Origin: Chiloscyllium plagiosum
Taxonomy: Eukaryota
Length of the DNA stretch: 64,000 nt
Direction: 5' to 3'
Assembly: GCF_004010195.1 (NCBI RefSeq)
Contig: NC_057752.1
Span: 12,774,381 to 12,838,380, forward strand
The notes under the pieces were generated by a model. The model made no database searches, had not been told where the DNA came from, and was given only the letters and a program-made list of their open reading frames with translations. Shown piece after piece: positions 1,727 through 62,700 of this stretch. A program made the translations under genes and the position numbers. The first letter of the stretch is position 1. The number at the start of each line of letters is the position of its first letter.

Positions 1727-1906
1727 GAGAAAGTGAGGACTGCAGATGCTGGAGATCAGAGCTTAAAAACGTGTTGCTGGAAAAGCGCAGCAGTTCAGGA
1801 GAATCGACGTTTCGGGCATGAGCCCTTATTCAGGAATCTTCAGGCTCATGCCCGAAACGTCGATTCTCCTGAACTGCTGCGCTTTTCCAGCAACACATTT
1901 TCAGCT
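1727..1906 (-). mobile_element. Fold-back Penelope-derived hammerhead mini-element
   Basis: 16-bp TSD ctaatcctggatagtg (1711-1726 and 1907-1922). Internal inverted repeat around gggctcatgcccgaaacgtc. Confidence 0.85.
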
Positions 1907-8492: not shown

Positions 8493-8785
8493 TTTCTCTT
8501 CAAAGATTTCAACCTACTGCGAATCCTCTTACAAGGATGCCTTCCCTGAAGAAGCTCTCTTTCTCCCTCTACAAAGGTTTCAGTGAGTCCCTCTCTCACT
8601 GCACCCCCCAGGTCATCTCCTCTGCACAGAAGCTCTTCAGCCACATTCGCCATTCCTGAAGAAGGGCTAATGCCCGAAACGTCGATTCTCCTGTTCCCTA
8701 GATGCTGCCTGACCTGCTGCGCTTCTCCAGCAACACATTTCCATCTCTGATCTCCAGCATCTGCAGACCTCATTTTCTCTTCAAA
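8493..8785 (+). mobile_element. Penelope-like pLTR monomer inserted in the satellite (ORF start, hammerhead, leader)
   Basis: TSD gacacacgtgat (8481-8492 and 8786-8797). Short ORF MPSLKKLSFSLYKGFSESLSHCTPQVISSAQKLFSH. Hammerhead core at 8656-8683. Confidence 0.8.
8651..8690 (+). ncRNA. Minimal hammerhead ribozyme motif
   Basis: CTGAAGA-a-GGGC-taat-GCCC-GAAAC-GTC; stem III is the self-complementary ACGT; stem I is weak. Confidence 0.7.
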
Positions 8786-10149: not shown

Positions 10150-11550
10150 CAAAGAACAAAAAACAAGATCAAAGAACAACACAGCACAGGAACAGGCCCT
10201 TCGGCCCTCCAAGCCTGCGCCGACACATGTTGCCCTTCCATACTAAAACTGTCTTCACTTTCAGGATCCATATCCCTTTACTCCCTTCCTATTCATGTAT
10301 TTGTCCAGGTGCTTCCTGAATGCTGCTATTGTGTCTGCTTCCACCACCTGGGCGGCACGGTGGCTCAGTGGTTAGCACTGCTGCCTCACAGCACCAGAGA
10401 CCTGGGTTCAATTCCCGACTCAGGCGACTGACTGTGTGGAGTTTGCACATTCTCCCCGTGTCTGCATGGGTTTCCTCCAGGTGCTCCGGTTTCCTCCCAC
10501 AGTCCAAAGATGTGCAGGTCAGGTGAATTGGCCATGCTAAATTGCCCGTAGTGTTAGGTAAAAGGGGTAAATGTAGGGGAATGGGTGGGTTGCGCTTCGG
10601 CGGGTCGGTGGGGACTTGTTGGGCCGAAGGGCCTGTTTCCACACTGTAAGTAATCTAATCTAAAAACCTCCTGTAGCAGGGTGTTCCAGGCACTCACCAC
10701 CCTTTGTGTGAAAAACCTGCCTTGCACATCTCTTTTAAATTCCCTTACTCGCACCTTGAACTGACCCCTCCACCCTGGAGAAATGCCTCATGCTCCTCAA
10801 TCTCTCCATGCCATTCACAACCTTATAAACGTCTATCAGGTCGCCCCTCAACCTCCTGTGTTCCAGTGAAAACAAACCCAGTCTATCCAACCTTTCTTCC
10901 GAGCTAAAATCCCCCTTACCAGGCAACATCCTGGTAAACCGTTTCTGTACCCTCTCCAGAGCATCCACATCCTTCTGGTTGTGTGGTGACCAGAACTGGA
11001 CACAATATTCCAAGTGTGGCCTAATTAAAGTTCTATAAAGCTGCAGCAGAACTTGTCTATCCTTATACTCAATGCCCCTTCCAATGAAGGGGAGCATGCC
11101 ATAGGCCTTTGTTACTCCCTTATCTCCTTGCGCTGTGACCTTCAGTGAGCTGTGGACCTGCACCCCCAGACCCATCTGCATATCAATACTCCTGAGAGTT
11201 CTGCCATTCACTGTATAATTTCCACCTGTACTTGACCTTCCAAAATCCATCACCTCACACCTGTCTGGATTAAACTCCATCTGCCATTTTTCAGTCCATG
11301 CCTCCAACTGATCTATATCCTGCTGTATCCTCTGACAATCCTCCTCACTATCCGCAACTCCACCAATCTTTGTATCCTCCACAAACTTACTAATTAAACC
11401 AGCCACGTTTTCCTCCAAATCATTTAAGAAGATGACAAACAGCAGAGGTCCCAGCGCTGATCCCTGTGGAACACCAGTGGTCAGAGCCCTCCATTCCGAA
11501 AAGCATCCTTCCACTGCTACCCTGTGTCTCCGATGATTAAGCCAGTTCTG
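10150..11550 (-). mobile_element. CR1 LINE, 5'-truncated RT region plus 3' tail, interrupted by a SINE
   Basis: GVPQGSALGPLLF, KFVEDTKIGG, RPHLEYCVQFWSP and ERVQKRFTRM motifs. Confidence 0.95.
10351..10663 (+). mobile_element. Full-length HE1/V-SINE-type tRNA-derived SINE
   Basis: A box tggctcagtgg, B box ggttcaattcc, central tgtggagtttgcacattctccccgtg domain, LINE-like tail and (aatct)n. Confidence 0.93.
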
Positions 11551-11690
11551 GATCCAAGGAAATAGAGGGATATGGATCTTGTACGTAAAGACAGTTTTAG
11601 TGTGGATGGGCAAAATGTGTTGGCACAGATTTGGTGGGCCGAATGGCCTGTTCCTGTGCTGTATTGTTCTTTGTTCCTTTGTTCTTCTTT
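11549..11690 (+). mobile_element. CR1 3' tail, inverted relative to the adjacent LINE
   Basis: Approximate reverse complement of 10152-10290. Confidence 0.8.
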
Positions 11691-11694
11691 GTCT

Positions 11695-12570
11695 CACAGA
11701 AGGCACTGTTTTGATAGTCAAATCCATGACAATTAAATGTAAAATGACCTACCAAGATTTTCAGATAGCTATGCCCAATTTATATGCTATTCCTCCAGGC
11801 AACGGCTTGCCCTCACTTGCACTCTCAGATTCCGAAGACAGATGACCACAATTCCTCCCTCCCACACTCTTGCCACCCAACCATATTGGCACAACATACT
11901 GTTAGGAAGGAAGGAGAAAATGGTGCATGATTAACAGGCATGGGTTGTCCCACTTCAAGCCAGGAGAAAACCGACAAGTTTGAAATTTTGATACGAGCAT
12001 GGAAAGATACAGTCTAGGATACATGATTTTGTCATGAACAATAATCAAGTGCAGTGCAGAAAATGACACCATTTCTGAACTGCACAACATTAACCATCCA
12101 CCACACAGAATGGTGACTCAGATACTGAAGACACCATGCTAGACAACAACCGCATGCCTACAACAAATGATACACTTCCATCCGTTAAGACAGAGACCAC
12201 ACAGCAGAGTGAAACTACATTGCCAAGCCATGATTTCTGTATACGGACTAGATCTGGTTATGTCATATGTGCACCAAGACATTATCTGACTGTGCAGAGA
12301 CAACTATAGATGCATTCTTGTAGACATTAAAGGGAAAAGGAGGGATACTGCATTATGGCATGGACTCCAGACCAGACAAAACCTGGATCTTTAAGACTGT
12401 TATATCACATCATGATGCATATTCTGATATAAAGGTCCAAGTCTCAACTTCAGCCAAACTCTCTGTGTCATCAACTCAGTGTAGGCAGCCAATTACATGT
12501 GTGTGTGAGGACAGTAACATTAGTAAACACAGCACCCAGACTATCTGTGTAAGTCTGAGATATCATAGCT
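11695..12570 (+). mobile_element. Decayed Gypsy-type LTR retrotransposon 3' remnant
   Basis: IVKSMTIKCKMTYQDFQIAMPNLYAIPPGNGLPS resembles an integrase C-terminus, followed by RTRSG (~12244) and a polypurine tract aaagggaaaaggaggga (~12329-12345). Confidence 0.55.
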
Positions 12571-15182: not shown

Positions 15183-15469
15183 ATAGTGGTTGGTTGTATA
15201 CTTATCTCCACCTGGTCTACTACAACTCAGCCATTCCAGGTATGAGCAATTCCTAGATTCCTACAGCCCTTTGTTTGTAAACCATTCTTGAATGGAATTG
15301 CTCTTCAATGTTATGGTTATGTCCCCTTGTTCTGGACTCCCTCACCAGAGGAAGTACATTTTTCATATCCATCGAAGCCAACTATCTCAACTGATGGAAA
15401 TACACATCTATTTGTGGCAACCTTCTGTTCAGGCAAGTGAACGACATTTTGGGAATGACTGGCACATTC

Positions 15470-16803
15470 TTGTTCAGATATACATGCATTTGGAAAGACA
15501 AAGTTTGATTAGGAGCAGTCAGCATGGCTTTATGCATGGGAGATCATGCCTCACAAGTTTGTTAGAGTTCTTTGATGAAGTGACCAGGAAGGTTGATGAG
15601 GGCAGGGCGGTAGATATAGTCTATATGGATTTCAGTAAGGCCTTTGATAAGGTTCCACATGGTAGGCTGCTCTGGAAGGTTAGATCGCATGGAATCCAGG
15701 GAGAGGTGGCAAACTGGATACACAATACTCTTGATGGTAGGAAGCAGAGGTTAATAGTGGAAGGATGCTTGTTGGACTGGAGGCCTGTGACTAGCGGAGT
15801 GCCTCAGGGGTCGGTGCTGGGCCCATTTCTGTTTGTTATCTATAACAATGATTTGGATGAGTAGGTACAAGGCATGATTAGTAAGTTTGCAGATGACACT
15901 AAAATAGGCAGTATTGTAGATAGCAAGGAAAGTTATCAGAAAATGTAGCAGGACCTTGATCAGCTGGGGAAGTGGGCCAAGAAATGGCAAATGGAGTTTA
16001 ATATAGATAAGTCTGAGGTCTTGCATTTTGGAAAGTCAAATCAAGATAGGAGTTTAGTGGTCAACGGCAGGGCCTGAATGAGTGTAGAGGAACAGAGGGA
16101 CCTTATTGTTCAGGTGCATGGTTCTCTGAAAGTGGAGTCACAGGTAGACAGGGCAGTGAAGAAGGCTTTTGGCACACTGGCCTTCATCAGTCAGGGTACT
16201 AAATTGCCCATAGTGGGAAATTACGTTGCAGTCGTACAGGATGTTGGTGAGGCCGCACTTGGAGTATTGTGTTCAGTTTTGGTCACTTTGTGATAGGAAG
16301 GATGTTATTAAACTGGAAAGAGTACAGAAGAAATTTACAAGGATGTTCCCTGGACTCAAGGGTCTGAGTTATAGGGAGAGGTTGGACAAGCTAGCACCTT
16401 TTTCTTTCGAGCGTACGAGACTGAGGGGGGATCTTATAGAAGTGTATAAGATCATGAGAGGCATGAATAGAGTAAATGTACTCAGTTTTTTTTCCCCAGG
16501 GTTGGGGAATCAAGGACTAAAGGGCATCAGTTTAAGGTTAGAGGGGAAAGAACAAAAGGGAACCTGAGGGGCAACTTTTCGACACAGAGGGTGGTACGCA
16601 TATGTAATGAACTGTCAGCGGAAGTGGTTGAAGCAGGTACATTAACATTTAAAAGGCATTTGGACAAATAATTTGGATCGGAAAGGATTAGAAGGATATG
16701 GGCCAAGTTCAGGGGAATGGGGTTAGTGTGGATGGATATTTTGGTCGGCATGGACCTGTTTGGGTCAAAGGGCTTGTCTCCATGCTGTAGGACTCTTTGA
16801 CTA
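15470..16803 (+). mobile_element. CR1 LINE RT region plus 3' tail
   Basis: [26 protein letters not shown] and [10 protein letters not shown] motifs, with in-frame stops. Confidence 0.95.
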
Positions 16804-17249: not shown

Positions 17250-17520
17250 ACAGAAACAAAAACAGAAATTGCTGGAAAAGCTCAGCAGGTCTGGCAGCAT
17301 CTGTGGAGAGAAATCAGAGTTAACGTTTCAGGTCCAGTGGCCCTTCCTCAGAACTGATGGTAGCTGGGAAAATGTTGGTTTATATGCAGCAGATAGGGTG
17401 GGGGAAGGGATAAGGAGTAAACAATAGGTGGGGATATAGTCCAAAAAGACAAAAGAACAGGTGGACAGTCAAAGGAGTGCATAACAATCTGGCTGGGAGG
17501 GTGAATAGCTGTTAATGGTT
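17250..17520 (-). mobile_element. Penelope-like 3' terminal repeat with hammerhead at 17313-17358
   Basis: Minus strand AGTT-CTGAGGA-agggccactggacct-GAAAC-GTT-AACT; stem I AGTT/AACT pairs. Confidence 0.8.
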
Positions 17521-18560: not shown

Positions 18561-20276
18561 GACTCATTATCAAGTTCAATAACGAGGGCTTGAGCTCTCC
18601 CATGTCCTTACACCTACCCCCACACACCAGGCCTTGTTATCACACAGGAGGTAAAAACAATGACTGCAGATGCTGGAAACCAGATTCTGGATCAGTGGTG
18701 CTGGAAGAGCACAGTAATTCAGGCAGCATCCAAGGACTGGCAAAATCGACGTTTCGGGCAATCAGATCACTGTCTCAAATAGTAGCCAGGCATGAAACAG
18801 ATGACTGTAAAAGTAATGAACTTTGATTAAGTCATAATTAATGAATTCATATAATGAATAAGTATATTAGAACGTCTGGATTTTCATTTAATGTCATAAT
18901 GTATAATGACTACGTAAGTTGAAGATCTTGAGGAATTTTAGCCACAGTTAAATGCTGTTTAAATAAAGGTATATTTCTGGAACACTGGTAAGGCACAGTA
19001 TACCATACCCTTGTAGAACACTGGTTGTGGAATATGGGAGCTGTTTAAAAGCAAGTTAAACTGGCTGAGCAAAGAAGTCTTCATACTTCTTAGGTGACAC
19101 TTAGCTCTTCCTTTAAATCATGTGTTTATCAACTGGAAGGTGTAATTAAGAACCAATGACATGTATTTAACAACAGGTAGAATCAATGTCTAAGTCAATT
19201 GACTCTGAGGGCTGTTGCGATATAGTGATGGTGTCCCCACTCTGAGCCAGGAAGTTCAAATGCACTTGCTCGAGAGCAGTGTGATGGCATTTCTGAACAG
19301 GTTGATTGAAAAATATTGAGCCTTACTCTGACATGGCGTGATGGTCATCCAGCGATTAAAAACTGTTTTTCATCTCCACAAATAGTTTGTCTTCAAGACA
19401 GAGTCCTGAGATAGTGGATTCTGACTTACATTTTGAGACAGTATGCAGCTGCTGAAGTCATAAAAGTCATAAGTTGGTTAAGAATACACTTTCTTTCATA
19501 AGCTCCTCAAATATTATTATCCAAAGGGTCCTGTTTTGCCTTTGTTGGTTAAGTCCAATCTGAACAAAAGTCATTTACAAATTACGAGCAAAGTGCAGTT
19601 ACTGAAACTAAATTAGTTGATTATGATAACAAAATCAGTGACATGTGCGCTCCCTCTCCATCATGACTCCTTTCCATCTGTGCCCAGGGGCCAGATTCGG
19701 TATTCAGGGAAGATATTAGACCATGACTAATAAGAGTGCTGTGTGTGAAGGTGCTAGCATTAAAGTGCTGCCCATCCCCTGACTGATGAGCAGCTCTTAG
19801 AGAGGGAGGAATTCTGGCTTTTTGGGGGCCTTGATCATGCTGGTTGCATTTTCAAGGGAAGGTAGATGGGATCTAAGTCAATATGTTTATTAATGGAGTT
19901 CTGGTTCACCAACGCTTCACTAGAGACTCTCACTGATGATTTTACCTCATCATGGTGACAAAATGTCTGAAAACAAACCTTCCAGCTCAGCAAGTTAACT
20001 TACATACTTACAATAAATACATCTTCACACATTTATAATTTCACTATGAATACCAAACAATAGAAATTGTCAGATCTTGTATTTGTGTGGGATGTGAATA
20101 ATGAGAAACTACAGGTGAAAAGATATCCCTGACATTTTATCAAATATGGAATGAAATTAATAACAGGTTTCCCCTTCAGCTTGCAAATGATCACAATAAT
20201 TTTGTATAAACATATAAAACTACCCCTCTGACCATACAATTAATACACTGAGTTATAAGTCATCAAACAAATAAGG

Positions 20277-20399
20277 GCTGAAGAAGGGCTTATGCCCGAA
20301 ACGTCGATTCTCCTGTTCCCTGGATGCTGCCTGACCTGCTGCGCTTCTCCAGCAACACATTTTCAGCTCTGATCGCCAGCATCTGCAGACCTCACTTTC
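20277..20399 (+). mobile_element. Hammerhead mini-element (123 bp)
   Basis: 17-bp TSD tcatcaaacaaataagg (20260-20276 and 20400-20416). Starts gCTGAAGAaGGGCttatGCCCGAAACGTC and ends ctcactttc. Confidence 0.9.
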
Positions 20400-20691
20400 T
20401 CATCAAACAAATAAGGCCTCATTCTATGTCATATTGGATACTGACTCTGTTGGTCAGTTTGATAGAATTGGCTTCAGTGGTCAAAGGTCAAGGAAGATAA
20501 AAGAGAAGTAGAGAGCATTTCAGTGTGGATCCCAAACTAGAAATATTAGCAGTAAGGATGAGACTAGGTTTAGCTATGTTTTGGTAGTTTAACAGTCACT
20601 TCAAGTTTTGGATTCAGCAATTAAGACTTTTATTTTACAAGCTCACACAGGCTGACAGAATTGTTATAGCACAGAAAGGGGCCACTTGGCC

Positions 20692-21228
20692 ATACAAAAA
20701 CTGAAAGAACTGCAGACGTTGGAAATCAGACACAAAAACAGAAAAATTCAGCAGGTCTGGTTGCATCTGTGGAGAGAAATCATAGTTAACATTTTGGGAC
20801 AAGTGACTGTTCTTCAGAACTGACAGCAGCTAGGGAAAAGAATCATAGAATCCCTACAGTGTGGAAACAGGCCCTTCAGGCCCAACAAGTCCACACCAAC
20901 CTTTCAAAGAGTAACCCACCCAGACCCATTCCCCTATCCTATTATCCTCCATTTATCCCTGACTAATGCACTTAACCTACACATCCCAAAACACTATGGG
21001 CAATTTAGTATGGCCAATATATAAATTTGCTCCTTACCCCCCTCCCCCCACCCTATCTTCAGCATATAAACTGACATTTTCCTAGCTACCATCAGTTCTG
21101 AGGAAAGGCCACTGGACCTGAAACGTTAACTCTGATTTCTCTCCACAGGTGCTGCCAGACCTGCTGAGCTTTATCCGCAACTTTTGTTTTTGTTTCTGAT
21201 TTACAGTATCCGTAGCTTGTTTGGTTTT
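20692..21228. mobile_element. Inverted pair of Penelope-like terminal repeats around a SINE tail; intact hammerhead at 21091-21136 (+)
   Basis: 20692-20835 is an approximate reverse complement of 21080-21228. AGTT-CTGAGGA-aAGG-ccactgga-CCT-GAAAC-GTT-AACT. Confidence 0.8.
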
Positions 21229-23831: not shown

Positions 23832-23953
23832 AGAAAGTGAGGACTGCAGATGCTGGAGATCAGAGCTGAAAATGTGTTGCTGGAAAAGCACAGCAGGTCA
23901 GGCAGCATCCAAGGAGCAGGAGAATCGACGTTTCGGGCATGAGCCCTTCTTCA
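23832..23953 (-). mobile_element. Hammerhead mini-element
   Basis: 14-bp TSD ttcataaggaaagg (23818-23831 and 23950-23963). Reverse complement of the 20277-20399 element. Confidence 0.9.
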
Positions 23954-35940: not shown

Positions 35941-37624
35941 ATGGTTCTGTTCGCCGAGCTGGGAATTTGTGTTGCAGATATTTCGTCCCCTGTCTAGGTG
36001 ACATCCTCAGTGCTTGGGAGCCTCCTGTGAAGCGCTTCTGTGATCTTTCCTCCAGCATTTGTAGTGGTTTGAATCTGCCGCTTCCGGTTGTCAGTTCCAG
36101 CTGTCCGCTGCAGTGGCCGGAATATTGGGTCCAGGTCGATGTGCTTATTGATTGAATCAGTGGATGAGTGCCATGCCTCTAGGAATTCCCTGGCTGTTCT
36201 CTGTTTGGCTTGTCCTATAATAGTAGTGTTGTCCCAGTCNNNNNNNNNNNNNNNNNNNNNNNNNNNNNNNNNNNNNNNNNNNNNNNNNNNNNNNNNNNNN
36301 NNNNNNNNNNNNNNNNNNNNNNNNNNNNNNNNNNNNNNNNNNNNNNNNNNNNNNNNNNNNNNNNNNNNNNNNNNNNNNNNNNNNNNNNNNNNNNNNNNNN
36401 NNNNNNNNNNNNNNNNNNNNNNNNNNNNNNNNNNNNNNNNNNNNNNNNNNNNNNNNNNNNNNNNNNNNNNNNNNNNNNNNNNNNNNNNNNNNNNNNNNNN
36501 NNNNNNNNNNNNNNNNNNNNNNNNNNNNNNNNNNNNNNNNNNNNNNNNNNNNNNNNNNNNNNNNNNNNNNNNNNNNNNNNNNNNNNNNNNNNNNNNNNNN
36601 NNNNNNNNNNNNNNNNNNNNNNNNNNNNNNNNNNNNNNNNNNNNNNNNNNNNNNNNNNNNNNNNNNNNNNNNNNNNNNNNNNNNNNNNNNNNNNNNNNNN
36701 NNNNNNNNNNNNNNNNNNNNNNNNNNNNNNNNNNNNNNNNNNNNNNNNNNNNNNNNNNNNNNNNNNNNNNNNNNNNNNNNNNNNNNNNNNNNNNNNNNNN
36801 NNNNNNNNNNNNNNNNNNNNNNNNNNNNNNNNNNNNNNNNNNNNNNNNNNNNNNNNNNNNNNNNNNNNNNNNNNNNNNNNNNNNNNNNNNNNNNNNNNNN
36901 NNNNNNNNNNNNNNNNNNNNNNNNNNNNNNNNNNNNNNNNNNNNNNNNNNNNNNNNNNNNNNNNNNNNNNNNNNNNNNNNNNNNNNNNNNNNNNNNNNNN
37001 NNNNNNNNNNNNNNNNNNNNNNNNNNNNNNNNNNNNNNNNNNNNNNNNNNNNNNNNNNNNNNNNNNNNNNNNNNNNNNNNNNNNNNNNNNNNNNNNNNNN
37101 NNNNNNNTCGAATGAGACCATGGTTTCTTCCTTGTCTATGTGTATATTTCTGATGATGTCCAAGAATTCCTGTGTTGATTGTATAGAGTGTCTGGATCCG
37201 CTGATCAGGTGTTTCAGTTTCTGCTGTAGTTCTTTCGCCAGTTTGTGTGATGGTGTCCCTGGTAGTGATACTCTGGGTCTGAGTGGGATGTCTGGTTTGT
37301 GCACTTTAGGTAGTCGTCTGGGGGTGTTGTTGCTTTCAGGTTTCATTCTTTGTAGGTCAAACCTGGTTATCTGTCTGTTTTTTTTGTAGGTTCCTCAGTG
37401 CGTTGTTTATCCTATTGGTGAGCTGTGGGGGTGGGGTCAAACTCCCTCTTTTGGTAGGTGTTGGTATCTGCAAGTAGTTGTTGCGCTTTCTGGATGTACT
37501 CTGCTTTGTCCTCTGAGGATGTCACCTAGACAGGGGACGAAACGTCTGCAACACAAATTCCCAGCTCGGCGAACAGAACCACAACAACGACCTCCCGAGC
37601 TACAAATCTTCGCACAAACCATGA
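35941..37624 (-). mobile_element. Penelope-like element (RT to GIY-YIG C-terminus, centre in gap) with inverted terminal repeat
   Basis: LPKVHKPDIPLRP...MVSF and REFLEAWHS motifs. 16-bp TSD accaataaggtctgtt (35925-35940 and 37625-37640). Hammerhead cores at 35973-36013 (-) and 37513-37550 (+). Confidence 0.92.
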
Positions 37625-37939
37625 ACCAATAAGGTCTGTTCTGTGTGCACTACAAGCATCTTGTACTAACTCAAAAGTTGCTATTGGGAGGCAGAGAAAA
37701 TTGGAGGTTGATGAACAGTTGCATTTTAACACTGACCAAGGAAAAGCCTCTGATAAAGAAGCTGGTAGTAGCAGTCTGGGTAGGAATCTGAATGTTGTGG
37801 AGCAAGATTGTGAAGGATTTGAAAGGAGGATAAGGATCCTGACATTGGTTCACCCTGAGATGAATCATCACCTTCCAAATCTCATGCAAAACACAGGGTG
37901 TAATCTTATTAGGTTCAGAGTGACGTGGGTTATAGCAAG

Positions 37940-40128: not shown

Positions 40129-40327
40129 CACAACACCAGGTTATAGTTCAACAGGTTTATTTGGAAGCACTAGCTTTCAGAGTGCTGCTCCATCATCACA
40201 TAGCTAACTGATGAAGGAGCAGTGCTCTGGAAGCTAGTGCTTCCAAATAATCCTGTTGGACTATAACCTGGTGTTGTGTGACTTTTAACTTTGTCCACCC
40301 CAGTCCAACACTGGCACCTCAACATCA
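40129..40327. mobile_element. Fold-back Penelope-derived mini-element (AGCT-type hammerhead family)
   Basis: 13-bp TSD tatttaagcatca (40116-40128 and 40328-40340). ~75-bp inverted arms, each with a mutated CTGATGA..GAAAGCTA core. Confidence 0.85.
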
Positions 40328-41479: not shown

Positions 41480-43320
41480 TGGGAAAGGGGGAGGTGCAAT
41501 GAGACCTGGGTGCCCTTGTACACCAGTCACTGAAAATAAGCCTGCAGGGGACAGCAGGAGGTGAAGAAGGTAAATGGGATGTTGGGTCTTCACAGTGAGA
41601 GGGTTCGAGTACAGGAGCCAAGAGTGTGGTGCTGGAAAAGCACAGCTGGTTAGGCACATTCGAGGAGCAGGACAATCGACGTTTTGGTGGGACTGGGGTA
41701 AGGTGGGGGGAGGGGAAGTGAGGAAACTGGTGAAATCCACATTGATGCCATGGGGTTGGAGGGTCACAAGGTGGAAGATGAGTTATTCTTCCTCAAGGCA
41801 TTGGGTGGTAAGGGAGTGGTGATGGAGGAGGCCCAGGACCTGTATGTCCTTGGCAAAGTGGGAGGCAGAGTTAAAGTGTTTGGCCACGGGGTGGTGGGAT
41901 TGGTTGGTGCGGGTGTCCCAGAGATGTTCTCTGAAGCGCTTTATAATTAAGCGTCCAGTCTCCCCAATGTAGAGGACTCTGCATCAGGAGCAACAGATAC
42001 AGTAAATGAGGTGTGGAAATGCAGGTGAAACTTCGATGGATGCGGAAGGCTCCTTTGGGGCCTTGGATGGAGGTGAGGGGGGAGGTGTGAGCGCAGGTTT
42101 TGCAATTCCTGCAGTGGCAGGGGAGGGTGGGTTGTTAGAGGATGTGGACCTGACAATTAGTCATGGAGGGAATGGTCTTTACGGAAAGCGGATAGGGTGG
42201 GGAGGGAAAGATATCTCTGGTGGTGGCGTCCGTTTGTAGGTGGCGGAAATGGCGGAGGATGTTACGATGTACACGGAGATTGGGGTGGAAGGTGAGGACC
42301 GGGGTGGGGGTGGGGTGGCTGGTTCTGCGATTGTTGCGGTTGGAAGTGTGCGGTTCGAGGGCGGAGGTGCAAGATGTGGATGAGATGTGCTGGAGGGCAT
42401 CATTAACCACGTGGGAGGGGAAGTTGCAGTCTTTAAAGAAGGAGGCCATCTGGTGTGTTCTGCGATGGGACTGGTCCTCCTGGGAACAGATGAGGTGGAG
42501 GAATTGGAAATAAGGGATAGCATTTTTGCAGGAGGCGGGATGGGAGGAGGTGTAATGCAAGATGGCTGTAGGAGTCAGTGGGTTTGTAGAAAATGTCAGT
42601 GTTGAGTTGTTCACCGTTGATGGAGATGGAGAGGTCCAGGAAGGGGGGAAAAGGTGTCAGGTGGTCCAGGTAAATTTAAGGTTGGGGTGAAATGTGTTGG
42701 TGAAGTTGAGTGGAAGTACAGGAGCAGAGATGTCTTGCTGCAGTTGTACAGGGCTTTGATGATACCACACCTGGAGTATTGTGTGCAGTTTGGGTCTTCT
42801 TATCTGAGGAAGGGTGTTCTGGTGATGGAGGGAGTACAGCAAAGGTTTCCCAGACTGATTCCTGGGATGGCAGGACTGTCGCATGAAGAGAGACTGGATT
42901 GGTTTGGATTATATTCACTGGAGTTTAGAAGAATAAGGGGGCGAGATCTCATAGAAACCTGTAAAATTCTAACAGGACTAGACTGAGTAAACACAGGAAG
43001 GATGTTCCTGATGACCAGGGACTCTAGGACCAGGGGGTCACAGTTTAAGGACACAGGGTAGACCATTTCGGACTGAGCTGAGGAGGAATGTCTTCACCCA
43101 GAGAGTGGGGGAGCCTGTGGAATTCTCTGCCACAGCAAGTGCTTGAGACCAAAACCTTGGTTTTAAGGAGTTAGATATAATTGTTAGAGTTAAAGGAATC
43201 CAAGGCTATGGGATGAAAGCAGGAACAGGGGACTGTGTTGGATGATCAGACATGATCATATTGAATGGTGGGGCAGGCTCAAAGGGCTGAATGGCCTACT
43301 CCTGCTCCTATGTTCTGCGT
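41480..43320 (+). mobile_element. CR1 LINE 3' portion interrupted by a Penelope-like element
   Basis: PHLEYCVQFGS motif and tail; colinear with the 61590-62700 copy. Confidence 0.88.
41619..42714 (-). mobile_element. Penelope-like element, RT C-terminus plus GIY-YIG endonuclease
   Basis: Minus strand LIYCI...LYIGETGR (~41950-42010) and TLQPHGINVDFTSF. TSD agtacaggagc (41608-41618 and 42715-42725). Confidence 0.88.
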
Positions 43321-49454: not shown

Positions 49455-52400
49455 AGCAGGATAAGAATGAGTGGCTTGAGAGATGGTGCAGGAGGGAGGG
49501 GTTCAGATTTTTGGATTGGGATCGGTTCTGGGGGAGGTGGGACTATTACAAATTGGACGGTCTACACCTGGGCTGGACTGTAACCAGTATCCTAGGAGGT
49601 GCTTTTGCTAACACCATTGGGCAGGGTTTAAACTAATGTGGCAGGGGGATGGTAAAGGAAGAGGTAGTAACTAAAGCCTGTAAGGAACTAGATAATGAAG
49701 TCAGCATGAATAAGGGGCATGAATAAAGGGAATAGTAGGCAGGGAGCAGATGATGAATGCAAAGGGACAAGTGGTCTGAGGTGCATTGGTTTTAAAGCTA
49801 GAAATGTAGATAAGGCATATGAACTTAGGGCTTGGATTAGTACCTGGGAGTACGATGTTATTGCTATTACTGAGACTTGGTTGAGGGAAGGGCAAGATTG
49901 GCAACTAAATATCCCAGGATACCAATGCTTCAGGTGGGATACAGAGGGAGGCAAAAGGGGGTAGAGGAGTTGCATTACTGGTCATGGAGGATATCGCACT
50001 ATGGAAGACTCAAGCAGTGAGGCAATATGGGCAGAGCTCAGAAGTAAGAAAGGTGCTGTAACAATGTTGGAGCTGTACAACAGGCCTCCCAATAGTGAGC
50101 ATGAGATCGAGGTACAAATATGTAGACAGATTATGGATAGATGTTTGTAAATAGTCCAACTCGGGAAGGGGCCATACTGTACCTGGTGGTGGGGAATGAG
50201 CCCAGCCAGGTGGTTGTAGTTTCAGTAGGGGATTACTTTGGGAATAGTGATCACAGTTCCATAAGTTTTAGAATACTCATGGACAAAGAAGAGAGTGGTC
50301 CTAAAGAACAAGTGCTAAATTGGGGAAGGCCAACTATAGCAAAATTCGGGAGGAGCTGGGGAATGTGGATTGGGAGCAGCTGTTTGAGGGTAAATCCACA
50401 TTTCATATGTGGGAGGCTTTGAAAGAAAGGTTGATTAGAGTGCAGGACACACTCTGTGCCTGTGAAAATGAGGGAAAGAAATGGTAAAATTAGGAAACCA
50501 TGGATGACAGGTGAAATTGAGAGACTGACTAAGAGGTGAAAGGAAGCATACGTAACGTCTAGGCGACTGAAAACAGATGAAGCTTTGAAAGAATATTGGG
50601 AATGTAGGACCAGTCCGAAACGAGGAATTACGAGGGTGAAAAGGGGTCATGAAATATCTTTAGCAAACAGAGTTAAGGAAAATCCCAAAGCCTTTTATTC
50701 GTATATAAGGAGCAAGAGGGTAACTAGAGAAAGGGTTGGCCCACTAATGGACAAAGGAGGAACGTTATGCGTGGTGTTAGAGAAAATGGGTGAGATTCTT
50801 AATGAGTACTTTGCGTTGGTATTCACTGAGCAGAGGGACACGATGGATGTTGAGGTTAGGGATAGATAGTCATAGTCATAGAGATGTACAGCATGGACCA
50901 GGACCCTTCGGTCTAACCCGTCCATGCCGACCAGATATCCCAACCCAATCTATCCCCACCTGCCAGCACCCGGCCGATATCCCTCCAAACCCTTCCTATT
51001 CATATACCCATCCAAATGCCTCTTAAATGTTGCAATTGTACCAGCCTCCACCACATCCTCTGGCAGCTCATTCCAAACACGTACCACCCTCTGCGTGAAA
51101 ACGTTGCCTCTTGGGTCTTTTTTATATCTTTCCCCTCTCACCCTAAACCTATGCCCTCTAGTTCTGGACTCCCCGACCCCAGGGAAAAAACTTTGCCTAT
51201 TTATTCTATCCATGCCCCTCATAATTCTGTAAACCTCTATAAGGTCACCCCTCAGCCTCCGACATTCCAGGGAAAACAGCCCCAGCCTGTTCAGCCTCTC
51301 CTTGTAGCTCAGATCCTCCAACCCAGGCAACATCCTTGTAAATCTTTTCTGAACCCTTTCAAGTTTCACAACATCTTTCCAATAGGAAGGAGACCAGAAT
51401 TGCATGCAATATTCCAACANNNNNNNNNNNNNNNNNNNNNNNNNNNNNNNNNNNNNNNNNNNNNNNNNNNNNNNNNNNNNNNNNNNNNNNNNNNNNNNNN
51501 NNNNNNNNNNNNNNNNNNNNNNNNNNNNNNNNNNNNNNNNNNNNNNNNNNNNNNNNNNNNNNNNNNNNNNNNNNNNNNNNNNNNNNNNNNNNNNNNNNNN
51601 NNNNNNNNNNNNNNNNNNNNNNNNNNNNNNNNNNNNNNNNNNNNNNNNNNNNNNCTTGAACACGGGTGAGGTCCCAGAGGACTGGAGAATTGTTAATGTT
51701 GTCCCCTTGTTTAAGAAGGGTAACACGGATAATCCAAGTAATTATAGACCGGTGAGCCTGACGTTAGTGGTAGGGAAGCTGCTGGAGAAGATACTGAGGG
51801 ATAGGATCTATTTACATTTGGAAGAAAATGGGCTTATCAGTGATAGGCAACATGGTTTTTTGCGGGGAAGGTCAAATCTTACCAACTTAATAGAATTCTT
51901 TGAGGAAGTGACAAAGTTGATTGATGAGGGAAGGGCTGTAGATGTCATATACATGGACTTCAGTAAGGCATTTGATAAGGTTCCCTATGGTAGGCTGATG
52001 GAGAAGTGAAGTTGCGTGGGGTCCAGGGGGTACTAGCTAGACGGATAGAGAACTAGCTGGGTAACAGGAGGCAGAGAGTTGTACTGGAAGGGAGTTTCTC
52101 AAACTGGAGACCTGTGACCAGTGGTGTTCCGTAGAGATCCTTGCTGGGACCACTATTGTTTGTGATATACATAAATGATCTGGATGAAGGCATAGGTGGT
52201 CTGATTAGAAAGTTTGCAGATGACACGAAGATTGGTGTAGGGGAAGATAGTGAAGGAACTGTCAGAGAGTGCAGCAGAATATAGATAGATGGAAGAGTTG
52301 GGCAGAGAAATGGCAGATGGAATTCAATCTGGGCAAATGCGAGGTGATGCATTTTGGAAGATCCAATTCCCAAGCAAACTAGACCGCAAATAGAAAAGCC

Positions 52401-56030: not shown

Positions 56031-56267
56031 ATCTGGCGGCTATATAATGTCTTTGTATAATGTGACAGTAAGTACGTGTGACTACACACTGAGCAGAATG
56101 TTATAGGGTCCTGGGCTATATTAAGATTTGTGTCAGAATTAAGAAGTCTGGTCAGACCCCTCTCAGTAAGATAATCTCACACCATCTTTCATCCTTTTGA
56201 TGGGGATGGTGAGGAGTGCCTCGGTAGGGTGTATTGAAATAAGGCTCATTTACCTTATCTCTACCAA

Positions 56268-56436
56268 GGAGAAAGTGAGAACTGCACATGCTGGAGATCA
56301 GAGTCGAAAAGTGTGGTGCTGGAAAAGCACAGCAGGTCAGGCAGCATCCGAGGAGCAGAGGAGTCGACGTTTCAGGCATAAGTCCTTCCTCATTCCTGCC
56401 TGATCTGTGCTTTTCCAGCGCCACACTTTTCGATTC
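56268..56436 (-). mobile_element. Hammerhead mini-element with partial fold-back
   Basis: Same leader as 23832-23953; degenerate core; 56395-56436 is an inverted copy of ~56303-56343. Confidence 0.8.
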
Positions 56437-57704
56437 CTGTCTTGCCAATCCCACCAAACAAGCGTCGGGAACGTCGCCATGGAAACTAGAGTGGGTATCT
56501 GGCAGATTTACCCTCTCTACCTGTTCTGAGTGGCCTTCTTGGCGGACACTGGGCACCAACATCTCAGCGCCTTCCTCCATGGGCACCAACCTCACCCACC
56601 ACACATCCATGGACATTGGCATCTGACCTGTACCAACCTCAAATTAGGATATGGTGAGAGATCTTACCAGGCCTCAGGGCGAGAAACCCTCCAAGAAAAC
56701 ACATCACAATTCGGACGCAAGTTGAATCTTGCGTTTTTTGGCTATGCTGCAGCAGAGGACGTTATTTCAAAATGAAACTTTGTTTGTGTGAACGAGGAAG
56801 CAGTGATTGTTTTTGTCTGCATGGGAGCAGAGTGTGCCTGTATTGCAACTGGTGTTTATATATTTGTCATGTGCACCATGGACATAGCAGGGAAGTGATG
56901 GCCCAATGATATTATCTTTAGACTTAGAAGCTCAGAGAATGTTCTGAGGACCTGGGTTTGAATCCTGCCACAGTAGGTGGTAGAATTTGAATTTAATTTT
57001 TAAACAAAGTCTTAAAATTAAAATCTAATTAAAATGTTGAATTTAGAGCATAATGTTGACCATGAATCCATTGTTGATTGGTGGGGAAAACCCATTAGGG
57101 GTTCACTAATGCCCTTTAGTTAAGGAAACAACTGCTGCAATGTAATTGACTCTTAACTGCCATCTGGGATGGGCATAAATGCTGTCTAGCCCCAGCGATG
57201 CCTTCAACCCATGAATGAATTTAAATAAAAAATACAGATATCAGTGTTAGCTTTAGCCTTTGCTATATTCTTGGTGCAGTTTTACTTGCATCTCTTCCAC
57301 CATTTAATTTCTTTGTCTGCCCATAGCCCTCAGTCAGTGCCAGCAAACAAACTTTGCCTTGCTATCATAACAAAGCTCAGAACAGGATTTGTAGCCATAT
57401 TCAGAAAGCATTTGGCATAAGAACCTGGGAAAGCTGGTGCTGCTCATGCTCACATAAAACCGAAAAACTGTGTGGACGCTGGAGATCTGAAACCAACACC
57501 AAAGATAGAAATTGCTGAAGAAACTCAGCAGGTCTGGCAGCATCTATGGAGAGAGAAAAACAAAGGTAGCGTTTTGAGTTTAGTGACCCTTTGCCTGAGC
57601 TAGAAGCAGTGAGGAGGTGGTCCCTGTCACTTCAACACACCAATGCGTTCCCTGGCCAATATTCTGATTTCTGGTTTGCGGCAATGCTCCACCAATTATC
57701 TTTG

Positions 57705-59165: not shown

Positions 59166-59315
59166 GCTGAAACTTTATTGCTGGAACAATAAAGAAGGGC
59201 CTGTGCCCGAAACGTCGAATCTCCTGTTCCCTGGATGCTGCCTGACCTGCTGTGCTGTTCCAGCAATAAAGTTTCAGCTTTGATCTCCAGCGTCTGCAGA
59301 CCTCACTTTCTCCTC
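59166..59315 (+). mobile_element. Hammerhead mini-element with 23-bp 5' inversion
   Basis: 14-bp TSD gaagatccatgtga (59152-59165 and 59316-59329); aagaaGGGCctgtGCCCGAAACGTC. Confidence 0.88.
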
Positions 59316-61589: not shown

Positions 61590-62700
61590 ATGTGTAATAT
61601 CTCCAAGTTTGCAGATGATACAAAGCTGGAAGGGAGGGTGAACTGTGTGGAGGATGCAGAGATGCTTCAGTGTATTTTGGACAGGATGAGTGAATGGGCA
61701 AGTACATGGCAGATGCAGAATATTGTGGGTAAATATGAGATTATCCACTTTGGAAGCAAAACCAGGAAGGCAGATTATTCTCTCAATCGTGACAGATTGG
61801 GAAAGGGGGAGGTGCAGTGAGACCTGGGTGCTCTTGTACACCAGTCACTAAGTAAGCCTGCAGGGGGCAGCAGGAGGTGAAGGAGGTCAATAGGATGTTG
61901 GCTGAAAATGTGTTGCTGGAAAAGCGCAGCAGGTCAGGCAGCATCCAAGGAACAGGAGAATCGACGTTTCGGGCATAAGCCCTTCTTCAGGAAGGGCTTA
62001 TGCCCGAAATGTTGATTCTCCTGTTCCTTGAATGCTGCCTGACCTGCTGCGCTTTTCCAGCAACACATTTTCAGCTCTGATCTCCAGCATCTGCAGTCCT
62101 CACTTTCTCCTCCTATAGGATGTTGGGCCTTCATAGTGAGAGGGTTCGAGTACAGGAGCAGGGATGTCTTGCTGCAGTTGGACAGGGCCTTGGTGAGACC
62201 ACACCTGGAGTATTATGTGCAGTGTGGGTCTCCTTATCTGAGGAAGGATGTTCTGGTGATGGAGGGAGTACAGCAAAGGTTTCCCAGACTGATTCCTGGA
62301 TGGCAGGACTGACGTATGAAGACAGACTGGATCAGTTAGGATTATATTCACTAGACTTTAGAAGAATGAATCCTCTAAAATTCTAACAGGACCAAATAGG
62401 GTAAACACAGGATGGATGTCCCTGAGGACCAGGGGGTTCAGAGCCAGGGTCGACAGTCTAAGGGTACAGACTGAGCTGAGGAGAAATGTCTTCACCCAGA
62501 GAGTGGGGAGCCTGTGGAATTCTCTGCCACAGAAAGCATTTGAGGGTGAAATATTGAATATTTTCAAGAAGGGGTTAGATATATTTCTTAGAGCTAAAGG
62601 GATCAAAAGGTATGGGCTGAGAAATGGGAACAGGGGACTGAGTTGGATGATCGTATTGAAGGGTTGAATGACCTCCTCCTGCTCCTATTTTCTGTGTTTT
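61590..62700 (+). mobile_element. CR1 LINE RT 3' portion interrupted by a fold-back mini-element
   Basis: ISKFADDTKL motif and CR1 tail. Confidence 0.9.
61902..62114. mobile_element. Fold-back hammerhead mini-element
   Basis: 12-bp TSD ataggatgttgg (61890-61901 and 62115-62126). ~85-bp inverted arms. Intact minus-strand CTGAAGA..GAAACGTC at ~61957-61992. Confidence 0.92.

Follow-up and report, generated by a model that had tools for sequence, protein, structure and literature searches.

Among endonuclease-bearing (EN+) Penelope-like elements (PLEs), a zinc-finger linker between the reverse transcriptase (RT) and the endonuclease (EN) serves as the criterion for Neptune and Nematis (PMC8557442). 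TATA and initiator (Inr) motifs are known from PLE terminal repeats, or pLTRs (PMC3846280), and an internal promoter is described for the Drosophila Penelope element (PMC2377424). In vitro, the PLE protein of the anole nicks both target strands, starts copying at two internal priming sites that define the "tail," and uses RNA that is not cleaved; it also requires ORF sequence past the start sites, namely the first 172 nt of the ORF (PMC11167929). The minimal hammerhead motif is defined by a bulged base before stem II, a palindromic CG, and a short helix I, and no cleavage was reported for a single minimal motif (PMC4209133; this and the other papers are cited for the excerpts of their text that were available). 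At issue are the route by which a PLE gets from internal priming to full-length copies and the role of the PLE hammerhead. In LTR retroelements, which have a terminal repeat at both ends of the RNA, minus-strand strong-stop DNA is a short cDNA whose priming site is close to the 5' end of the RNA and whose synthesis ends by run-off at the cap.

We analyzed a 64-kb stretch of shark DNA ("the window") that contains several copies of a short cassette. This cassette is almost certainly the terminal repeat of an autonomous PLE and consists of a minimal hammerhead plus a tail. We number it from the C of CTGA, which is position 0 and lies at window position 20278. A preliminary description had listed six copies (at 1727, 20277, 23832, 56268, 59166, and 61902), and we found all six. 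The flagged copy (20277..20399, plus strand) has one extra G and then positions 0 to +121 of the PLE terminal repeat, and it is flanked by 17-bp target-site duplications (TSDs) at 20260..20276 and 20400..20416 (plus strand). Its tail (20363..20399, plus strand) lies between two fixed 3' ends, at about +85..+92 and about +120..+129. The roughly 95 nt that had been called a leader are a trailer, as they are placed 3' of the hammerhead.

The other five copies vary in form. Two are head-to-head: the copy at 1727..1906 (minus strand) has a tailed arm on the minus strand, a tail-less arm on the plus strand, a broken hammerhead, and a 16-bp TSD (1711-1726/1907-1922), and the copy at 61902..62112 (no overall strand) has a tail-less arm on the minus strand, a tailed arm on the plus strand, and a 14-bp TSD with one mismatch (61888-61901/62113-62126). 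The copy at 23832..23949 (minus strand) is a single mini that runs from +1 to the tail, with the first core base missing and a 14-bp TSD (23818-23831/23950-23963). A member of the CTGTG-loop subfamily (59166..59315, plus strand) runs from +3 to the tail and has a short inverted arm and a 14-bp TSD (59152-59165/59316-59329). The copy at 56267..56440 (minus strand) is older (about 85% identity to the young type), and its inverted arm has decayed. It is the exception to the claim that five of the six copies have their own TSD, since none was found near its ends; the TSDs of the others are 14–17 bp, and TSDs of at least 9 bp arise by chance at 0.5% of 400 random positions. The size range of 120–210 bp reflects the second, inverted arm that four of the copies carry (1727, 56268, 59166, and 61902).

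Three further copies were absent from the preliminary description. At 8493..8782 (plus strand), PLE positions +118..+273 (the start of the ORF region) are joined to a unit that runs from about -4 to the tail; we class this copy, which has an intact hammerhead and a 15-bp TSD with one mismatch, as a jump product. The other two are older fragments at 18664 and 41625. The latter is a long, old copy (41625..42656, minus strand) with a cassette remnant, the 3' UTR and GIY-YIG region, and an RT-thumb-like frame.

The pattern CTGANGA..GAAAC occurs eight times in the window, versus 1.21 expected. In the flagged copy, the minimal type I hammerhead core (20278..20305, plus strand) comprises CTGAAGA, a bulged A, stem II (GGGC/GCCC), GAAA, the palindromic CG, and TC, and the cut is predicted to fall after 20305, i.e., after +27. 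The 5' strand of helix I is absent from this copy, which has AGGG in place of the ATTC that helix I requires. The earlier reading of the six copies as hammerheads holds for the core and stem II in two of them (20277 and 61902), but helix I is present in none. An Rfam scan gave no hammerhead family at E ≤ 1, and the folding of four window stretches gave z-scores from -0.89 to 0.37, so their stability is not unusual. The minimal type I hammerhead (CUGANGA, stem II, GAAA, NUH, and helix I) is complete in the parent element. Across 156 insertions sampled from the genome, it is complete (including helix I) in 39, reduced to the core in 15, and broken in 102. The ATG in the stem II loop also opens a 26-codon cysteine-rich frame, MPETSILLFPGCCLTCCAFPATHFQL (window 20292-20372). 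It is not in register with the main ORF (for which the first ATG is near +160), and the predicted cleavage would drop the loop ATG.

The window contains other mobile elements as well. Hammerheads of older PLE families lie at 17325-17351 (minus strand), 21098-21124 (plus strand), 41031, 57512, 58126, and 29279; in the 17325/21098 type, CTGA is closely preceded by TATAAA and TCAGTT, and helix I is 4 bp long (AGTT/AACT). A different PLE (35994-37650) includes an RT/GIY-YIG-like frame on the minus strand, interrupted by an assembly gap, and at 37513 on the plus strand a hammerhead with a long stem II, which is apparently an inverted arm; related motifs are found at loci L102, L184, L097, and L153. 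Three regions (10735-11748, 15292-15864, and 50917-52009) presumably represent RT fragments of CR1/L2-like LINEs. A palindromic insert of about 120 bp (40143-40264) has a weak match to a miRNA family and is probably a MITE-like repeat; similar sequence adjoins locus L144. Finally, a locus on another contig (G000:C14:18546110-18549233; L002) shares its flanking sequence with the flagged copy (on C43), which indicates either a segmental duplication or an assembly duplicate.

As the preliminary description had proposed, the cassette derives from a PLE, and its mobilization by a PLE RT is supported along with this origin: longer copies continue into GIY-YIG, zinc-finger, and RT sequence. Six among the first 30 genomic matches to the cassette extend upstream with one common sequence. 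Walking outward from the cassette leads through a C-rich 3' UTR to a GIY-YIG domain, a CxxxxCxxC linker, and an RT. The GIY-YIG domain is C-terminal (PF01541 in Pfam, at 22.8 bits versus a cut-off of 22.6), and the RT motifs YIDD and MG are in one ORF with it. The linker lying between the RT and the EN, CNRRRCKTC, is zinc-finger-like, which is a trait of Neptune and Nematis. For a 162-aa translated piece, Pfam gave no family. In tblastn comparisons with a 902-aa homolog that has RVT_1 and GIY-YIG domains (P0005), the matches were colinear and covered amino acids 3-709 at one locus and extended to amino acid 899 at others. The nearest named proteins are from a bamboo shark (77%) and the whale shark (66%).

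The copy at 8493 revealed that the sequence 3' of the tail is the start of the ORF. We saw one near-full-length copy (G000:C99513:4646-7937, minus strand), which starts at -4, ends at +89 of a second cassette, and matches amino acids 3-709 of the 902-aa homolog in order; it has two assembly gaps, and no TSD is visible. From -4, the element is about 3.3 kb long and contains the hammerhead, the tail, the ORF (N-terminus, RT, zinc finger, and GIY-YIG, in that order), the C-rich 3' UTR, and the cassette again at the 3' end. On the basis of the ORF walk and the G000:C99513 copy, we conclude that an autonomous PLE bears the cassette at both ends. The pLTR traits found are the hammerhead, an optional tail of 30–40 bp, an inverted 5' copy, and a TSD. 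Judged from its sequence, the element is an EN+ PLE of the Neptune type by the linker criterion, with the linker trait being common to Neptune and Nematis. Two long copies (L143 and L272) lack the 3' UTR and the hammerhead core: their sequence breaks off close to the ORF stop, at a TTTCCTCAT-like site, and resumes at +17/+19.

For unselected counts, we sampled the large contigs at round coordinates, taking 120 stretches of 10 kb each (1.2 Mb, including 45 kb of N). This sample contains 162 insertions, which make up about 1.6% of the sampled bases and extrapolate to about 480,000 in the genome. We analyzed 156 of these insertions, as six at the edges of stretches were dropped, along with five arms beside gaps; the long class includes 14 arms from older subfamilies whose 3' UTRs differ, about three of which are doubtful. 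There were 119 single and 37 head-to-head insertions. TSDs of at least 9 bp flank 39 of the 156 (24 pairs and 15 singles), with a median of 15 bp and 33 of the 39 at 12–18 bp. Short arms predominate (145 of 188), and by insertion, 109 are mini-only, 43 are long, and four are unclear.

The ends of these arms are far from evenly spread. At the 5' side, 102 of the 188 arms end at -8..+10, versus 11 expected at the neighboring rate, and the density there is 0.049/nt, versus 0.0025–0.011/nt in six other bins. The clustering of 5' ends at the CTGANGA box, noticed before in the window, therefore holds genome-wide too, and the roughly tenfold peak at -8..+10 contradicts smooth 5' truncation and bears out the claim that the copies are not random debris. 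Counting against the run-off reading given below, the cluster is about 18 nt wide, and 43 of the 145 short arms have their 5' ends outside it. Among the 188 arms, there is no peak at the GUC cut (+28). Because the cut is some 30 nt downstream of the clustered 5' ends, and the cut site is without a peak, we rejected ribozyme cleavage as their source.

At the 3' side, 29 of 71 arms at 90% identity or more end at +118..+129 and 37 end at +74..+96. The shared 3' end at ctcactttc(tcctc) that had been described is thus seen genome-wide, but it is not the only one, as a second fixed 3' end lies about 35–40 nt upstream (+85..+92). Of the 37 head-to-head pairs, 33 combine a tailed and a tail-less arm, one has two tail-less arms, none has two tailed arms, and three are unclassified. 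The joints between the arms vary from copy to copy.

Thirty loci that carry the start of the ORF (+130..+290) were chosen by query and are not a random set. None of the 30 has the 3' UTR upstream in direct orientation. Twenty are tandems in which a unit that ends at X, within +268 to +680, is followed by a second unit that starts at about -6..-3; we write these as [..X][-4..end]. Of the other ten, one resumes at -77, four resume at +29..+37, and five have no second unit in the available sequence. Restarts at about +37 (L284, L295, and L306) or +31 (L303) are just past the predicted cut at +28 and possibly reflect a minority of cleaved, trimmed RNA. The spread of the junctions at X, from +269 to +677, also led us to reject a circular-RNA reading of the copy at 8493. 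Allowing for ORF-side letters, which mostly explain apparent starts at -5/-6, the second unit starts at -4 or -3 at the 18 [..X][-4..end] joints examined; in contigs of another run, eight of the 15 joints listed reach base -4.

Because the G000:C99513 copy starts at -4 and none of the 30 ORF-start copies extends upstream, -4 is likely the 5' end of the RNA. The surrounding sequence, TCA(-4)TTC, is initiator-like. As -4 is the first base of helix I, the RNA would begin with the ribozyme. In a sister family in the window, the corresponding sequence is TCA(-4)GTT, which lacks ATT, and TATAAA lies 29 nt upstream of it. Of 60 alignments of this family, 13 start at -9..-1, around TCAGTT, and 47 start at +2 or later; the latter are probably divergent subfamilies. 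If the RNA is capped, a copied cap would leave an extra G before the start. A G directly precedes -4 in 14 of 18 starts, which we noticed post hoc in the same sequences. In the unselected sample, it does so in only one of three such starts, and pooled over starts from -6 to +6, there are 14 of 35, versus 10.5 expected, with significance in no junction class. Several of these G's could derive from the partner strand. We treat the cap-G signature as a hint.

We think it probable that the minis are fresh run-off cDNAs of PLE RNA, copied from either of two internal RT start sites to the RNA 5' end. In this mechanism, -4 would be a Pol II start (the initiator-like TCA+1TTC). The PLE protein would nick the target strands about 15 bp apart, and the RT would start at +90 or +125 within the 5' copy of the repeat and run out of template at the cap, having copied about 95 or 130 nt; the cDNA end would then be joined to the other target end. 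If one target strand were primed, the product would be a single mini, and if both strands were primed, one per start site, it would be an asymmetric head-to-head pair. The [..X][-4..end] tandems would result if synthesis switched from the cap end to ORF RNA. The templates would be uncut by the ribozyme, and the hammerhead would be a passenger at the front of the RNA. By analogy to the anole enzyme, we infer that the two fixed 3' ends would correspond to the two RT start sites. The long copies could arise either from priming in the 3' repeat or by homologous transfer, and the data fit both.

A broader reading is possible, although on balance we doubt it: PLEs may use a strong-stop and strand-transfer route in which priming of each insertion takes place in the front repeat, synthesis continues up to the cap, and a jump to the identical 3' repeat is then needed for the ORF to be copied. 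If so, the complete protein-binding site would be present only at the RNA front. Minis would be failed transfers, the [..X][-4..end] tandems would be mis-transfers, and seamless long copies would be successful ones. Cleavage by the front hammerhead would be a switch that removes the cap and the promoter-proximal end, and the transfer step would be recorded in about half a million shark insertions.

The run-off products could also be explained by priming in the 3' repeat on read-through RNA, with the hot spot at -4 arising from nicking at ATT or from an RT stop at helix I. Combined with a stop at -4, such priming could yield the same products. The anole enzyme favors ATT near the ORF-pLTR junction (PMC11167929, from the excerpts available), and -4..-2 is ATT; -4 is also where helix I begins, and 43 of 156 insertions run seamlessly past it. 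We nevertheless consider this unlikely. The full-length copy has its first base where the ORF-start copies have theirs, and both are accounted for by a natural end of the RNA. In the sister family, the stop is at AGT instead, with a TATA box at -29. As for a stop at helix I, the RT would reach the 3' strand of that helix (+31) first.

Even less likely, in our view, is an independent SINE-like element whose minis are themselves transcribed and then re-inserted by the PLE protein. The preliminary description had favored a separate, non-autonomous, SINE-like ribozyme element; this is not supported, because the whole cassette aligns to the PLE repeat and long and short copies are mixed. The fixed ends and the predominance of minis (about 70% of insertions, 109 of 156) would suit a SINE, but fixed ends and high copy number alone do not make one. 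Also in its favor are the internal promoter of Penelope in Drosophila (PMC2377424) and the ability of pLTRs to act in trans (PMC3846280), each as given in the excerpts available. Two variants are present in 6–7 of 98 short arms and in none of 38 long arms. One junction is common to exactly two insertions, the copy at 8493 and G000:C12:54606495, whose 3' ends differ; this pair may represent a second-generation copy.

Most of the evidence points away from such a lineage. Six loop-defined subfamilies are represented in the sample by long copies, and each of them has short ones too (a seventh has two short and no long copies). There is no short-only clade: on a tree of 136 arms, the long and short labels change 31 times, versus 32.0 when shuffled, and 191 of 500 shuffles gave as few as 31 changes (75 columns, with a weakly supported tree). 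Such mixing is evidence against a SINE lineage of its own. The 22 matches around +273 show 15 different junctions, which indicates that the products were mostly made afresh, and the head-to-head joints differ between copies as well. If the shark protein is like the anole protein, the minis would also lack the ORF sequence past the tail that it needs. At the RNA level, 92–94% of reads continue into unrelated flanks; reads that pile up on the cassette but run into the flanks fit passenger transcription. No peak of RNA beginnings or ends was listed at the cassette in the reads covered, about 2% of a poly(A) single-cell data set, and a short RNA would be lost from such a library. Flank-carrying tandems, which would be a sign of transcribed minis, were not evident among the only 21 same-strand pairs within 1.2 kb.

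We give very little credence to ordinary smooth 5' truncation, despite long copies growing gradually fewer towards the ORF, given the peak at one site, or to antisense self-priming, which was proposed for the head-to-head joints of rotifer PLE palindromes (PMC3846280, in the excerpts available) but would have to account for the tailed/tail-less makeup of 33 of 37 pairs and for priming on the sense strand by the anole PLE in vitro (PMC11167929, likewise).

The kind of element described here is already known, and the run-off step is the new part. In the literature that we searched (subscription papers, Dfam, and Repbase were outside its scope), we found neither a shark PLE mini-element nor any account of fixed 5' ends at the start of a PLE or of a run-off or strong-stop model. 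The base-resolved ends imply that the templates are uncut, that most cDNAs stop at the first base of the element, and that priming starts at a different site on each of the two target strands. If true, the run-off reading exposes an unseen step in PLE movement, and it is directly testable in vitro. Counts of "genomic hammerheads" in such genomes would mostly be counts of broken run-off copies.

Unlike strong-stop DNA of LTR retroelements, the shark minis would be target-primed and integrated directly, with no tRNA primer; the transfer to the 3' repeat is something that we only infer. Non-LTR retrozymes are similar in being short, non-coding, derived from PLE pLTRs, and equipped with a type I hammerhead, but as described in the available excerpts, they form head-to-tail tandems that are cut at the ribozyme and are made via circular RNA (PMC7229834; bioRxiv 10.64898/2026.07.22.740005). 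The shark cassette does not fit this pattern: none of the 156 insertions is a direct tandem within 40 bp, the ends are not at the +28 cut, and X is variable in [..X][-4..end]. The isolated minimal hammerheads of metazoans have the same motif and are mostly single or in close opposite-strand pairs; in the excerpts available, they are interpreted as truncated PLEs, their ends are unmapped, and no shark is included (PMC4209133). The Poseidon element PAc of Anolis is alike in that its tail is set by two internal RT start sites, about 85–100 nt past the hammerhead cut, its template is uncleaved, and both strands are primed (PMC11167929). It differs in belonging to the Poseidon clade, and run-off products at the RNA 5' end and genome counts are unreported in the excerpts of that paper. 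The shark element resembles the EN+ PLEs of the Neptune/Nematis type, which share the RT, zinc-finger linker, and C-terminal GIY-YIG, as well as a pLTR with a hammerhead, TATA/Inr-like motifs, a 30–40-bp tail at one end, an inverted 5' copy, and a TSD (PMC8557442; PMC3846280). The excerpts available from these two papers describe 5' truncation without a fixed point; in contrast, the repeat alone is the main product in the shark, with 109 of 156 insertions, and the first base of the element is the fixed 5' end of this product.
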